Below are positions 10,906 to 50,790 of a stretch of DNA of 64,000 bases, piece after piece (the first letter of the stretch is position 1; each line of letters starts with the position of its first letter). The notes beneath the pieces are model-generated. The model was not told where the DNA came from, ran no database searches, and saw nothing but the letters and a program-made list of their open reading frames with translations. Source of the stretch: Minisyncoccota bacterium (GTDB lineage: Bacteria > Patescibacteriota > Minisyncoccia > Phycocordibacterales > UBA2100); NCBI GenBank assembly GCA_036517195.1, contig DATDXU010000002.1:20635-84634 (forward strand), given 5' to 3'. The position numbers were made by a program, and so were the translations under genes.

Positions 10906-11097
10906 GGAAGCGGAAAAATTCATTTTTCCGCTTCACTCATTCTCTTGCCGGTAGAGTGAGCGATCCCGCAAGCTTGCGGGGATCCGAGCCCTGCCTGCGG
11001 CAGGCAGGCGAGGAGCGAGAAAGGTACAAGCCATGGGGCTTGCCCCCGCGTACCTTTACCAGTCATCAGGATGAGCGACCTCGTAGGTCGCTCATCC
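10906..11097. repeat. REP/BIME-like hairpin cluster (copy 2): five consecutive palindromes at 10906-10934, 10962-10984, 10988-11009, 11020-11057 and 11069-11097
   Basis: Sits between convergent genes. The palindrome gccctgcctgcggcaggcaggc, together with its flank, is a reverse-orientation copy of 61-96. The last hairpin carries the cgacctcgtaggtcg core. Confidence 0.55.
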
Positions 11098-11135
11098 TGC
11101 AAAAATCTTGAATGCTGATGGGGTAGGGCGTTTTT

Positions 11136-23133: not shown

Positions 23134-23233
23134 CTCGACACCTCTTGCCCCTTGTTCAATATATTCTTTCTCTATTGTAAGACATCAAAACGGAAGATTT
23201 TTAACGTGCCGTGAATAACAACTTTTGCAGAAA

Positions 23234-23262
23234 CAATGACCGACCTACGAGGTCGGTCATTG
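23234..23262. repeat. palindromic hairpin caatgaccgacc-tacga-ggtcggtcattg (cgacc...ggtcg family)
   Basis: 12-bp perfect stem read from the sequence, immediately upstream of the -35 element. Confidence 0.45.
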
Positions 23263-23291
23263 TTGACATGCGAATGTAGTCCTAGTAGACT
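23263..23291 (+). promoter_or_regulatory. sigma70-type promoter TTGACA-17-TAGACT
   Basis: Consensus -35 at 23263-23268, a 17-nt spacer, and -10 at 23286-23291. It lies about 45 nt upstream of the ATG at 23338. Confidence 0.5.
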
Positions 23292-24383: not shown

Positions 24384-24503
24384 AGAACGTGAAATGAGTC
24401 GAAAGAGGTCACGGCTTCGCCGTGACCTCTTTCATATTCTTGTTGCATCTTTTTGCCATCGGAGCACAATTGGTTTTGGCAATAGAGGACGAAGGAGGTG
24501 GCG

Positions 24504-35975: not shown

Positions 35976-36012
35976 GGGACGGAAGGTGTAACCTTCCGTC
36001 CCTTTCTTTTTT
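35976..36012 (+). terminator. rho-independent terminator ggacggaagg-tgtaa-ccttccgtcc + ctttctttttt
   Basis: 10-bp perfect stem plus a T-run, directly after prkA. Confidence 0.7.
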
Positions 36013-47219: not shown

Positions 47220-48212
47220 ATGAATACGAAGGGGATTAGCATAAACTTTGACCGTCTGGGTATGGTTGCGAAGCATCTTGCTGGCAGACCATACTCTGCG
47301 CCGTTCAATTTTTACTCCATCACGAACGCGTCTGGTGAGTCGCCCTTGCTCACGCAGTTCCCATCGCCCATTCAGGGGGAGCATGCTGTTCTCGAATTCT
47401 TTTTTGCCGAAACTTTGCAAGAGCATGGTTTTTGGCAAGAAAAATACGGGCGGTGGCAATCATCCATTCGGGGAACTATTAATGGGAAGAAATTGAAAGG
47501 TTCAGACCTCATGTGCCATCTACTGATGTTGGAGTTGAGGAAAAGTGAGACACAGTTTAAGCCTTCGACACTCGCCACCATGCAGTTCAGTCGTTTTATG
47601 GAAATCATGCATGACGATCTCGGTGCTATCGATTTTCCTGATATGCCGAAACGGTATATGTTGTGGCGTCTGTATGCCGAGTGGATGGTTTCTCGGAGTG
47701 AATCGCCCCACGGCATCATTGAGAAGGCGCGTGAATCAAAAACGCCGGCACAAACATTCCTCGGACTTCTGAAGGAGATACCGGGATTCAACGAAGACCC
47801 ATTCCAAAAGAAATCAAACCTTCTTCTCATGTATGTGATGAATCGTCCCGAACGATTCATCGTTCCAGAGCTCGGGTTCTCTCTGCCTGCGATGATTGAT
47901 TACCACGTGATGCGTCTTCTTCTGCGCTTCGGCGTCGTGTGTCTTTCCGCAGAGTTGCGCATTGAAAATCAGGCGCGGAGTGTCATATTGGAAGAAAGGG
48001 AAGCGACTATTCGCCATGTGTGCGAAATAGCGATGAACGAACTTGTTTCTCGCTCTAGGCTTCCGATGTCGGAAGTTGATGCACTTTTGTGGAATGGACG
48101 GGAGTTTTGTCTCGAGGCGACCGAACCTGATTGTGGACGATGTTCTCTTCGGGCTGTGTGTGCTCAAGAAACAAAACTCTTTCAGCCGGTGTACCGAACC
48201 ACGCACTACTAG
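47220..48212 (+). CDS. divergent HhH-GPD-superfamily (EndoIII/MutY-like) glycosylase-like protein with C-terminal Cx7Cx2Cx5C motif
   Basis: MIDYHVMRLLLRFGVV parallels EndoIII vDTHvfRv.nRlg. C-terminal CLEATEPDCGRCSLRAVC parallels the EndoIII [4Fe-4S] loop Cx6Cx2Cx5C. The overall sequence is very divergent. A queuosine-salvage (DUF2419)-like identity could not be excluded. Confidence 0.45.
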   Translation: MNTKGISINFDRLGMVAKHLAGRPYSAPFNFYSITNASGESPLLTQFPSPIQGEHAVLEFFFAETLQEHGFWQEKYGRWQSSIRGTINGKKLKGSDLMCHLLMLELRKSETQFKPSTLATMQFSRFMEIMHDDLGAIDFPDMPKRYMLWRLYAEWMVSRSESPHGIIEKARESKTPAQTFLGLLKEIPGFNEDPFQKKSNLLLMYVMNRPERFIVPELGFSLPAMIDYHVMRLLLRFGVVCLSAELRIENQARSVILEEREATIRHVCEIAMNELVSRSRLPMSEVDALLWNGREFCLEATEPDCGRCSLRAVCAQETKLFQPVYRTTHY

Positions 48213-49119: not shown

Positions 49120-49140
49120 TCTCTTTTGTAATAACTCCTT

Positions 49141-49851
49141 CTACCAAGGTCTTACCTTGGTAGAAACCTTGTCGTCTTCCGAATGTGCGTATATTTTTGC
49201 CTCTTCAATTAATTGTGACACAGATTGAGGTGTCTCCAAGATCTCAAGGACGGCGTCTTTGTTGATGAGGGAACTTTCTGGGCGGATTTCATCTGAACAG
49301 TAATCAGGGAAACTCGAATAACGATATTTTGATAAAAAAGATCTCAATCTCCTTTCATTTCTGACTACGCCTTTTTTCCAAGCAGACTCGATCAATTCGG
49401 CTGGGTTTGCGTGGATATAGCTTACGACTCTGTTGAAATTTTGGTCGGACACGATTCGTTTTGATTTAAAAGCACCCTGAAACAAAGACCCACTACGTTC
49501 GTACTTAATATTGAAGTACATTGCATACCCCGTTCCCACTCGACGCATAAAAGATGTTATGCCTCCAGGGTCGTGTTCACGTAGAAGTAAGTGATAATGA
49601 TTTGACATGAGACAGTATGCGCCAATGTCTACTAGTGTTTCTTTTCTCTCAACTGTCGCCATAACATCTACTAAGGTCTTACCTTGGTAGATGTTGCTGA
49701 CATGAATTGAATCGTGACTGTTGCACGCATAGAGGAGCATCAAGAAGCGCTCATGGTCTTTTGGATTCTCAAAGATGGTGCGCTTTTCAACGCCACGGTT
49801 GAAGCAGTGATACCACTCATTTGGTGCGAAGGGTGATGCGCGTTCGGCCAT
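49141..49851 (-). CDS. IS200-like / REP-associated tyrosine (Y1, HUH) transposase
   Basis: HUH motif CLMSNHYHLLL and catalytic-Tyr motif VVSYIHANP. Length 236 aa. The stop codon lies inside the left palindrome. Confidence 0.75.
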   Translation of the reverse strand: MAERASPFAPNEWYHCFNRGVEKRTIFENPKDHERFLMLLYACNSHDSIHVSNIYQGKTLVDVMATVERKETLVDIGAYCLMSNHYHLLLREHDPGGITSFMRRVGTGYAMYFNIKYERSGSLFQGAFKSKRIVSDQNFNRVVSYIHANPAELIESAWKKGVVRNERRLRSFLSKYRYSSFPDYCSDEIRPESSLINKDAVLEILETPQSVSQLIEEAKIYAHSEDDKVSTKVRPW

Positions 49852-49901
49852 ATGCTTATGATTATCATAGCATATTTTCTACCAAGGTGACACCTTGGTA
49901 G
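49141..49901. mobile_element. IS200/IS605-like RAYT element: HUH Y1 transposase gene flanked by GTAG-terminated palindromes ctaccaagg-N6-ccttggtag (49141-49163 and 49879-49901)
   Basis: Identical 9-bp stems on both flanks. A third, near-identical copy (ctactaaggtcttaccttggtag) lies inside the CDS at 49668-49690. Confidence 0.65.
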
Positions 49902-49981
49902 AAGGGGATTGTTGACTTATAAATCCAATCGTGGTACATAGATTCTAGTCATCAATCTTACAAAAGAAGGAACACGCGGCA

Positions 49982-50680
49982 ATGTGGAAACGTTTCGCAC
50001 TGTTTGCAATGCTGGTTTTTTCTCTTATGTCTGTGTCGCTGACGTTTGCTTTTGCAGACACGAATAAGGCGCCGAGCTACGAGCTTGCCAGGAGCATCCT
50101 CGGCAAGGACTTCATTTCCCCAGAGGAAGTCACCACCGCACGCGGCGTCACCTATACCGACGAGCAGCTCGCCACGTTCCGCGATACGCTCCCGGCGCAG
50201 GAGGTGCTCGAGTGGTGCCGCAACAATGGCATGATGCTTATCGCTGGTCCGCCGAAAAACATGTCGCTTCTCGACGTTCGCGCGCTCAAGACCGACTACT
50301 TCTACACGAAGAAAAACAACTGGTACTCGAGCAAGAGCGAGAGGTTCGCCAAAAACGACAAGGCCGAGCCGGTCTGGATCGCGCTTCGCAAGAAGCCGGT
50401 TGAGCGTTCGTTCAACAAGGATTGGAACGAGCAGAAGGAGCTCGTCGCCCCGCCGAATGTGGTCCCCAATGTCGCTGAGTTAGTGTGGGCGCTGACAACC
50501 TACAAGGCGGTGCGGGGTGTCTACCTGCTCCCGAACGTCTACGTGAGGACTTCCAGCGTCGACTCGGACGGCGACCGCGTGGACGTCGGCCCTTTCGCTG
50601 CCGGTGGCCTCCTCGTCGGCCACTCTTGGGACGACGACCGGCTCTCCCGCTTGGGCGTTTCGGCGTCTCGGAAGTTCTGA
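49982..50680 (+). CDS. hypothetical secreted protein on a GC-rich (~60%) segment
   Basis: Signal peptide MWKRFALFAMLVFSLMSVSLTFAFA. GC rises sharply after about 50040. Alternative-frame ORFs in this region are composition artefacts. Confidence 0.55.
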   Translation: MWKRFALFAMLVFSLMSVSLTFAFADTNKAPSYELARSILGKDFISPEEVTTARGVTYTDEQLATFRDTLPAQEVLEWCRNNGMMLIAGPPKNMSLLDVRALKTDYFYTKKNNWYSSKSERFAKNDKAEPVWIALRKKPVERSFNKDWNEQKELVAPPNVVPNVAELVWALTTYKAVRGVYLLPNVYVRTSSVDSDGDRVDVGPFAAGGLLVGHSWDDDRLSRLGVSASRKF

Positions 50681-50725
50681 CCCTCGAATTCTTGAGGACC
50701 TTGATCCTCTTGAAACCCTTGAGAG

Positions 50726-50759
50726 CCCTTGCGCGCCAGCGCGGGGGTTTTTTCTTTTT
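50726..50759 (+). terminator. terminator cccttgcgcg-cca-gcgcggggg + T-run
   Basis: GC stem followed by ttttttcttttt. Confidence 0.55.
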
Positions 50760-50790
50760 GTATTTTTTTGAGTAAGGTATGATTAAAACA

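Follow-up and report, generated by a model that had tools for sequence, protein, structure and literature searches.

Is a small transposase-like gene that is bracketed by palindromes a mobile element, the source of a dispersed repeat family or a resident gene with hairpins of its own? This question is raised by the gene at positions 49141-49851 of a stretch of 64,000 nucleotides (the window) from contig DATDXU010000002.1 of a Minisyncoccota bacterium. The gene, called Y1 gene in the following, encodes a HUH protein of the Y1 type resembling the REP-associated tyrosine transposases (RAYTs), where REP stands for repetitive extragenic palindrome. A first-pass annotation of the window, made from the sequence alone, had described the gene, its palindromes and an adjacent GC-rich gene as a small acquired island. 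Our comparison with related loci leads to a different picture. The segment 49139-49903 is probably a REPtron-like module, which consists of a domesticated, vertically inherited single-copy nuclease of the RAYT kind, acting on single-stranded DNA (ssDNA), and three copies of its cognate hairpin. Only the GC-rich neighbour, a gene of the type that is diversified by diversity-generating retroelements (DGRs), looks acquired at this locus.

Three copies of one palindrome in the window

A search of the whole 64 kb for the pattern CTACCAAGG-N5-CCTTGGTAG, allowing up to three mismatches, resulted in exactly three sites. Those at 49141-49163 and 49879-49901 match without any mismatch and the one at 49668-49690 with one. 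A chance origin can be dismissed, since 0.01 sites are expected in shuffled sequence of this length, and a relaxed core (CCAAGGT-N3-ACCTTGG, up to two mismatches) recovered the same three sites only. The first-pass annotation had located all three, including the copy with one mismatch inside the coding sequence (CDS), but its spacer of six nucleotides has to be corrected to five. The outer spacer bases and two flanking bases pair as well, and the flanking copies are perfect 12-bp stems with a 3-nt loop, TTCTACCAAGGT-NNN-ACCTTGGTAGAA; the internal copy has an extended stem of its own (Table 1). Folded as ssDNA, the 3', internal and 5' copies reach -11.5, -10.3 and -11.3 kcal/mol, with z-scores of -6.6, -5.6 and -7.1 against shuffles. 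An Rfam scan of the region gave nothing near the gathering score.

The TAG stop codon of the Y1 gene is the reverse complement of 49141-49143, the first triplet of the 3' palindrome, just as had been read from the sequence before. This copy lies 22 nt from the stop of a convergent gene for uracil-DNA glycosylase (UDG) and has no T-run. The internal copy codes for N-I-Y-Q-G-K-T-L-V-D-V (residues ~52-63), between helix A and the strand toward the HUH motif, and the translation IYQGKTLVD agrees with the segment YQGKTLVD given previously.

The window contains four other perfect palindromes with stems of 12-15 bp and 3-nt loops (11067-11099, 23232-23264, 24401-24433 and 35976-36002). They are unrelated in sequence, intergenic or terminator-like, and were rejected as further copies. 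The palindromes at 11067 and 23232 have the apex CGACCT-NNN-AGGTCG in common, and the one at 35976 sits after an open reading frame (ORF) of 712 aa and is followed by a T-run.

The Y1 protein

The 236-aa protein matches the Pfam family Y1_Tnp above the gathering cut-off (E 7e-7). Its motifs are NHYH at residues 84-87 and YIHANP at residues 145-150, and none of the residues H85, H87, Y145 and N149 varies among 34 aligned homologues. The AlphaFold2 model has a pLDDT of 89.7, with the QGxTL segment (residues 51-60, pLDDT 73) as the least confident part of the core. The top fold match in the PDB is 4ER8_A, the TnpA-REP protein of E. coli in complex with a REP hairpin (E 2.9e-6, probability 1.00, TM-score 0.65, target-normalised), followed by the TnpA proteins of ISDra2 and IS608. 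Judged by fold and catalytic motifs, the protein is predicted to be a RAYT-like HUH/Y1 enzyme, and the Pfam match and the best fold match to 4ER8 support the HUH and Y motifs and the RAYT-like identity proposed in the first-pass annotation.

More than 650 homologues were found, mostly in Patescibacteria of the Candidate Phyla Radiation (CPR), in metagenomes and metagenome-assembled genomes (MAGs). The 64-kb window has no second Y1 gene, and no member of the family was found on the viral contigs searched. A PHROGs search gave no match for the Y1 protein or for the protein of the neighbouring ORF, and Pfam detected no C-terminal helix-turn-helix (HTH) or DnaA_C-like domain in the Y1 protein.

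Synteny and conservation in relatives

The identical stretch is present on a JGI contig (L001). In relatives with 65-73% protein identity (L002, L004/L005, L015) the Y1 gene is convergent with the UDG gene and located near alaS. The order AlaRS...Y1_Tnp/UDG...PDDEXK, MgtC, Mrr, MnmA recurs in L001, L002 and L004/L005, and AlaRS is kept next to the Y1 gene in L015. At the same three positions as in the window, L002 carries the identical palindrome and L004 nearly so, with a degenerate internal copy. The proteins of L002 and L004 are only 65-69% identical to the window protein, yet the palindromes are kept. The upstream palindrome ends 19-20 nt before the start codon in these two loci, the internal copy lies at CDS nt ~160, and the downstream palindrome overlaps the stop codon, which is a TAA or TGA of the hairpin loop (...LPR-stop). 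The composition of the window gene is host-like (43% GC, GC3 0.45).

Since the same AlaRS/UDG neighbourhood and the same palindrome positions are found in relatives at 65-73% identity, the Y1 gene appears to be a resident, vertically inherited gene and not a recent arrival. The 3' end of the window gene (49141-49175) is read in another frame than positions 6670-6705 of L002 and runs ...KVSTKVRPW, its stop being the TAG of the stem. This frame difference to the relatives implies a presumed small indel just before the 3' palindrome in the window gene.

Palindromes across the protein family

For the family-wide comparison, 80 further loci were collected by protein similarity, and therefore unbiased as to the presence of a palindrome, and 82 non-redundant loci were counted. 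A palindrome is present upstream, at most 110 nt before the start, in 78 of 81 loci (96%), and downstream, at or just after the stop, in 71 of 77 (92%), overlapping the stop codon in 36 of them. Where both flanks are available, the same 8-nt arm (at least 7/8 positions) occurs at both ends in 65 of 76 loci (86%). In the surrounding DNA comparable palindromes occur once per 1343 nt. An internal copy with the same arm is found in 16 of 82 loci (20%), at CDS nt 150-180 and always in the same frame; these copies read QGxTL, and the loop is one codon. Because the palindromes are kept at the same three positions in the relatives with 65-73% identity and flank nearly all family members, they are in all probability a genuine, selected feature.

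The arms agree with each other within a locus and not between loci: arm identity within a locus is 7.62/8 on average (79% perfect), compared with 5.19/8 (4.5% perfect) between loci. The apex A-G-G-Y-NNN-R-C-C-T is nearly invariant across the family, the lower stem varies by lineage (CTACC, CGGC, ATGTC, GATG and others), and stems reach 22 bp. One example from another lineage is CACGGCAAGGT-N3-ACCTTGCCGTG. The identity within loci and the lineage-specific palindromes appear to be signatures of a protein that co-evolves with its cognate hairpin, as in REPtrons. The 300-kb contig Ga0207707_10000009 harbours two Y1 paralogues (L045 and L066), with 52% and 45% identity to the protein of the window. 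Both have flanking as well as internal palindromes, which differ between the two (AAGGCAAGGTCSGACCTTGCCTT and TTCGCAAGGTTCGACCTTGCGAA).

The orientation of the 3-nt loop varies freely from copy to copy and among close relatives (for instance L040, L042 and L043). The idea that the 5' and 3' loops are oriented in a fixed way relative to each other was abandoned, since the loops flip between as well as within loci. Stem mismatches have neither a G:T excess nor a strand bias. A function at the RNA level, which would be reflected in an excess of G:T wobble pairs, was discarded for lack of such an excess. Since G:T pairs are not in excess and stems are as long as 22 bp, the element seems to be more consistent with a DNA hairpin than with an RNA element or a duplex operator. 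The flanks of L059, L063, L066, L089 and L110 show head-to-head doublets or triplets of the palindrome, which are REPIN- or BIME-like.

The termini of the palindrome need a separate comment, because the first-pass annotation had considered its GTAG and CTAC ends a match to what RAYTs recognise. In canonical REPs the hairpin is imperfect and its foot bears an unpaired 5' GT[AG]G, and double-foot REPs read 5' GTRG...CYAC 3' (PMC6006769). The window palindrome has the order 5' CTAC...GTAG 3', in which GTAG forms the 3' terminus of the perfect stem and pairs with CTAC. In other lineages, GTAG gives way to GCCGTG, GATAT, GACAT and others, and the apex is kept. GTAG was therefore rejected as a recognition tag, as it is not conserved across the family. 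Given the reversed order, the base pairing and the different bases in most lineages, the resemblance is probably coincidental to this clade, and the earlier proposal does not hold: the tetranucleotide lies on the wrong side and is base-paired.

Promoter geometry

In the family, the centre of the upstream hairpin mostly lies 31-34 nt before the ATG. Relative to the A of the ATG, a TAnnnT hexamer begins at -12 in 39 of 79 loci, at -13 in 12 and at -14 in 8. Counting all starts from -19 to -10, 67 of the 79 loci have such a hexamer, compared with 10-14 in control windows, and a Shine-Dalgarno-like motif is found in 0 of 79. The single promoter-like site of the region has its -35 element GTGTCA in the hairpin apex and a TG-extended TATGAT that ends at 49864. 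This arrangement points to a promoter of the leaderless type, with the -10 hexamer at -12 to -7 from the ATG and the upstream palindrome centred on the -35 region. With such a geometry, the upstream copy would be a DNA-level element outside of the Y1 gene's own transcript.

Copies elsewhere

We scanned 185,579 species-representative genomes for exact matches to the palindrome and obtained 31 loci, of which about 24 belong to Patescibacteria. JBBUFE01 has four copies away from the gene and two gene-linked copies, JAUSGQ01 one and two, respectively, and CAYHST01 has three copies. The copies away from the gene occupy orthologous places in different genomes, where the flanks have diverged and the palindromes are identical. 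One such place is the junction of def and fmt in four genomes of Patescibacteria (L016 5994, L023 6681, L032 289, L035 404). Here the 23-nt copy follows the stop codon of the peptide deformylase gene and precedes the ATG of fmt by 3 nt, and its loop reads CGG or CCG.

Further copies are located in-frame within genes. The copies in carB (L011, L025, L034) read LPRSDLGR or LPRSHLGR, and those in a purL-like gene (L019, L037) read YQGxTLVE. In uvrB (L030) the in-frame copy belongs to a stretch of 34 aa that solved UvrB structures lack. This insertion, on the minus strand at ~800-910 of L030 (JBBUFE010000028.1), lies just before the DESH motif and is made of the palindrome, a second, degenerate copy and, on the outside, an inverted repeat (ggtagttt...aaactacc), which gives it the look of a REPIN-like doublet. 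The carB copy was rejected as an insertion, because there is no length difference to human CPS1.

In the flanks of the family loci, excluding the genes and their immediate flanks, six extra cognate copies were counted, five of them within 400 nt of the gene. Dispersal thus seems to be real but very low. A dispersed REP family in the genome of the window, which the first-pass annotation had envisaged and for which it had suggested a search for copies, is excluded within the 64 kb: there is no fourth copy, even with the relaxed core, and related genomes contain one to four exact copies away from the gene.

Comparison with known systems

Most of what is known on RAYT/REP systems comes from Proteobacteria, Cyanobacteria and Bacteroidetes. 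Among the literature searched, no paper ties them to the CPR or describes a module of a Y1 gene and palindromes as found here.

The closest parallel are the REPtrons, RAYT/TnpA-REP genes that are flanked by cognate REPs (Nunvar 2010, PMC2817692; Bertels & Rainey 2011, PMC3116915; Messing 2012, PMC3479197; Quentin et al. 2018, PMC6006769). Both have HUH and Y-x3-NP motifs, with 4ER8 as the best fold match of the present protein. Likewise, both occur as one or a few divergent, vertically inherited copies per genome, and each has its own palindrome family on both sides that differs by lineage and paralogue. In-frame REPs inside genes, including a uvr gene, have been described before (PMC3733652), and rare intragenic in-frame copies, again including a uvr gene, are a feature of the present family as well. 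However, there are also clear differences. The palindromes of the present family are perfect, have a 3-nt loop and lack the unpaired 5' GT[AG]G guide, and their conserved part is the apex AGG-Y-NNN-R-CCT instead of the foot. There is a handful of copies per genome, not tens to hundreds, and the positions at the gene are fixed, at a leaderless promoter's -35 region and at the stop codon. Moreover, the protein is longer (~230 aa, with a YRYSS tail) and stays under the NCBIfam cut-off for REP_Tyr_transpos. Taken together, the module is best described as a presumptive low-copy variant of a REPtron, with perfect, apex-conserved hairpins at fixed promoter, coding and stop positions and a wide occurrence in Patescibacteria.

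Two subclasses of TnpA-Y1 proteins deserve attention. Subclass 2.4 (group 4 of Bertels), which occurs in Cyanobacteria, Bacteroidetes and various phyla, has double-foot REPs as well as REPs inside of tnpAREP, between HuH and the Y motif (PMC6006769). A palindrome inside the transposase gene that leaves the frame intact, and GTAG and CTAC at the ends, are common to both. However, the present proteins have NHYH / FQ / YIHANP in place of NH[IFV]H / WQ / YIxNNP, and their internal copy is positionally conserved and lies before the HuH motif (residues ~52-63, compared with HuH at 85-87). The order 5' CTAC...GTAG 3' is the reverse of 5' GTRG...CYAC 3', and the family is found in Patescibacteria. Membership in subclass 2.4 was therefore rejected on account of the motifs, the site of the internal copy and the order of the tetranucleotides.

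Subclass 2.1, or TIRYT, is characterized by NH[YF]H, FQ instead of WQ, Y[IV]H.NP, an SS tail and a median length of ~238 aa (Quentin et al. 2018, PMC6006769; Di Nocera et al. 2013). With NHYH, FQ, YIHANP, an SS tail and ~236 aa, the present protein comes closest to this subclass by the published motif table. Subclass 2.1 has been reported without REP-like hairpins, some members having long terminal inverted repeats, and usually carries a C-terminal HTH or DnaA_C-like domain. In contrast, hairpins are present here, and Pfam finds no HTH or DnaA_C-like domain.

Mechanism and alternative explanations

How might such a module work? We propose that a dimeric enzyme recognises the hairpin via the conserved apex and the lineage-specific lower stem whenever the palindrome is extruded or single-stranded, and that protein and hairpin would co-evolve. 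Binding at the upstream copy might autoregulate transcription of the Y1 gene, and the copy at the stop codon might act as 3' end or as insulator between the convergent genes. The internal copy may be an old intragenic hairpin that stays in frame and that a surface loop (QGxTL) tolerates. Rare cleavage and joining by the enzyme could seed or refresh the scattered copies. Hairpin recognition, autoregulation at the -35 copy and seeding elsewhere are thus proposals that we infer from the comparison of loci.

Several points weigh against the interpretation as a REPtron-like module. As to the protein, its score with NCBIfam REP_Tyr_transpos is 41.7 bits, under the cut-off of 80, and a sequence-profile search of the PDB with the family profile gave no relative at E <= 0.01. 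Binding or cutting of the palindrome by the Y1 protein is predicted from comparative evidence. The canonical unpaired 5' GT[AG]G guide is absent. Dispersal is very low (no extra copy in 64 kb, six in 273 kb of family flanks, one to four exact non-gene copies per related MAG), and the multiplication that is typical of REP/REPIN systems is barely visible. Since carB shows no change in length relative to human CPS1, insertion cannot be demonstrated for all intragenic copies. The promoter match in the window is one consensus match, no better than in shuffled sequence, and geometry is the sole source of the autoregulation idea. Finally, distant family members have other neighbours; a synteny with UDG and AlaRS across the whole family was ruled out, as it is limited to the close clade.

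It is possible, though in our opinion doubtful, that the family is not a multiplier of REPs at all. The Y1 protein would then be a domesticated HUH protein with specificity for a hairpin, and its recognition element would be built into its own gene three times, at the -35 region, in the QGxTL codons and at the stop or 3' end, as an autoregulatory module, and the copies at def/fmt and in carB, the purL-like gene and uvrB would be conserved host targets and not selfish copies.

A further alternative, which we regard as unlikely, sees in the palindromes ordinary operators, attenuators, or terminators and mRNA stabilisers that are read by RNA polymerase, RNases or another host factor, and not by the Y1 protein. 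Such a role would be consistent with an upstream copy that exactly coincides with a leaderless promoter's -35 region, with the downstream copy at the stop between convergent genes and with the very low dispersal. However, independent regulatory hairpins need not match each other, yet all eight arm positions agree in 79% of the comparisons within loci and in 4.5% of those between lineages. The same sequence also occurs in-frame in the CDS, in unrelated genes and at the def/fmt junction. The missing T-run of the 3' copy in the window and the lack of a G:T enrichment among stem mismatches speak against a terminator or RNA element, and the only protein that is consistently tied to the palindrome belongs to a family of hairpin-binding nucleases.

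Still less probable is an autonomous minimal insertion sequence (IS) of the IS200 kind, with the palindromes as left-end and right-end hairpins of a 765-bp unit (49139-49903) that moves via a single-stranded circle. The size of this unit is close to that of IS200, the hairpins bracket the CDS tightly, the HUH/Y1 fold also matches the TnpA proteins of IS608 and ISDra2, and distant family members are found in other neighbourhoods. Against a mobile IS stand the one copy in the window and the same genomic position in relatives with 65-73% identity. The sole contig with two copies carries the divergent paralogues described above, each with its own palindrome, and no family member was found on viral contigs. 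Moreover, the Y motif is Y-x3-NP, which is of class 2 and RAYT-type, and not the Y-x3-Q of IS200 (PMC6006769), and the two ends have the same perfect palindrome and not distinct left and right ends. Hairpins at both ends of a very compact unit notwithstanding, membership in the IS200/IS605 insertion sequences was therefore rejected for a single-copy, syntenic gene with YIHANP.

The neighbouring gene

The features of the locus are collected in Table 1. The GC-rich ORF upstream of the Y1 gene stands alone between the Y1 gene and alaS. Its protein is matched exactly by VJH33_00440, a hypothetical protein from a MAG of Candidatus Paceibacterota, and has more than 250 homologues in CPR lineages, at 55-72% identity. 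Genes for bAvd and a reverse transcriptase (RT; RVT_1) come directly after the homologue in three unrelated contexts (L118, L119, L121/L122). L118 and L119 contain a pair of template region (TR) and variable region (VR) of 119 nt, where 12 of 12 and 14 of 17 mismatches are located at adenines of the TR. Differences between TR and VR that are specific to adenines are a hallmark of DGRs.

Table 1. Coordinates of the features at the Y1 locus and its upstream neighbour
Feature	Position	Strand	Description
3' palindrome	49139..49165	.	TTCTACCAAGGT-CTT-ACCTTGGTAGAA; 12-bp stem, 3-nt loop; contains the Y1 gene stop codon
RAYT-like HUH/Y1 gene (predicted)	49141..49851	-	236 aa; HUH (H-Y-H) at 49591-49599; catalytic Tyr of YIHANP at 49417-49419; YRYSS tail motif
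Internal in-frame palindrome	49663..49695	.	Sense strand AACATCTACCAAGGT-AAG-ACCTTAGTAGATGTT; 14-bp stem with one C:A mismatch
Core promoter (putative), very short or no leader	49852..49876	-	-10-like TATGAT/GATAAT just before the ATG; no Shine-Dalgarno motif
5' palindrome	49877..49903	.	TTCTACCAAGGTG-A-CACCTTGGTAGAA; centre 39 nt before the ATG, over the -35 region of the Y1 gene promoter
Orphan DGR-type variable-protein gene (putative)	49982..50680	+	232 aa; VR-equivalent region ~50557-50677
DGR post-VR segment (putative)	50681..50760	+	CTTGA repeats 50688-50730; GC hairpin 50725-50748; T-run

The window protein resembles the DGR variable proteins of CPR bacteria in its homology to the proteins that precede bAvd, TR and RT, in the VR pattern of its C-terminus and in the GC hairpin after the VR. 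It is homologous over 89% of its length, and its C-terminus is intact with the VR pattern kept. In contrast to these proteins, its first ~28 residues, a signal-like peptide, stand in for the N-terminal domain of ~50 aa of the family, and no RT, Avd or TR is found within the 64-kb window. The 80 nt past the stop align with the post-target sequence of the cassettes L118, L119 and L121. Since this segment is conserved with the DGR cassettes, its hairpin and T-run would be a post-VR element and not merely a terminator, as had been annotated before. Positions 50688-50730 comprise five units of ~9 nt with CTTGA (cttgagga ccttgatcc tcttgaaac ccttgagag cccttg). Based on the conservation of the segment in L118, L119 and L121, these repeats may be part of the target-recognition region of the retroelements.

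The composition of the gene is split. Its lineage-specific, signal-like N-terminus (49982-50065) has 43% GC, whereas 50066-50680 has 61% GC and a GC3 of 0.83, compared with 0.44-0.50 in neighbouring genes. The GC and GC3 values confirm the foreign composition that the first-pass annotation had noticed, and the gene is indeed non-syntenic; the designation as secreted-protein gene has to give way to that of a DGR variable protein. Relatives have a gene for an M16 peptidase and a small ORF at this position, neither of which is present in the 64-kb window. The foreign segment begins at ~50066, inside of the ORF, and ends at ~50760, and neither bound is at a hairpin. There is no palindrome or half-site at the distal junction, and the junction DNA has only the palindromes in common with relatives. 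An involvement of the hairpins was discarded, as nothing was seen at the junctions. We conclude that 49982-50760 is most likely a horizontally acquired, stranded DGR fragment, a variable-protein gene with its post-VR hairpin but without Avd, TR and RT nearby, which seems to have replaced the M16 peptidase gene and small ORF of the relatives and to be unrelated to the Y1 module.

The Y1 gene and the GC-rich ORF are highly improbable partners in one recently acquired island with hairpins that mark its ends or mediate capture: the ORF is foreign, has homologues at unrelated loci and adjoins the upstream hairpin at a distance of ~80 nt, but the Y1 gene is host-like and syntenic in relatives without this ORF, and the bounds of the foreign segment are not at the hairpin. 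Thus, of the island proposed in the first-pass annotation, the foreign GC-rich gene stands, while the Y1 gene, which is syntenic in four related genomes, and the hairpins do not belong to it; the comparison with relatives, which that annotation had recommended, found the Y1 gene conserved in place and the GC-rich gene not.

On the other side of the locus, upstream of the UDG gene, an ORF of 330 aa at 47220-48212 (+) has a sub-threshold match to PF10343 (queuosine salvage; 23.2 compared with 25 bits). It stands where L004 has a gene similar to saccharopine dehydrogenase, and this flank varies among relatives, too.

Significance

At this locus, the transposase-like gene would be the resident and the stranded DGR target the newcomer. 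This calls for some caution in annotation, as a gene labelled as transposase beside a compositionally foreign gene is no proof of a mobile island. The hypothesis that the flanking copies regulate the Y1 gene is testable. If the family is indeed a domesticated autoregulatory module, the co-variation of lower stem and protein by lineage would amount to a natural specificity code for the recognition of hairpins by HUH proteins. The natural pairs of protein and hairpin might serve as a ready panel for the engineering of sequence-specific ssDNA nucleases, and the loci are a comparative data set for how HUH/Y1 enzymes read hairpins. For the Patescibacteria, the Y1 family would represent a stripped-down pairing of protein and hairpin in tiny, gene-dense genomes, with few dispersed copies, fixed positions and an invariant apex.

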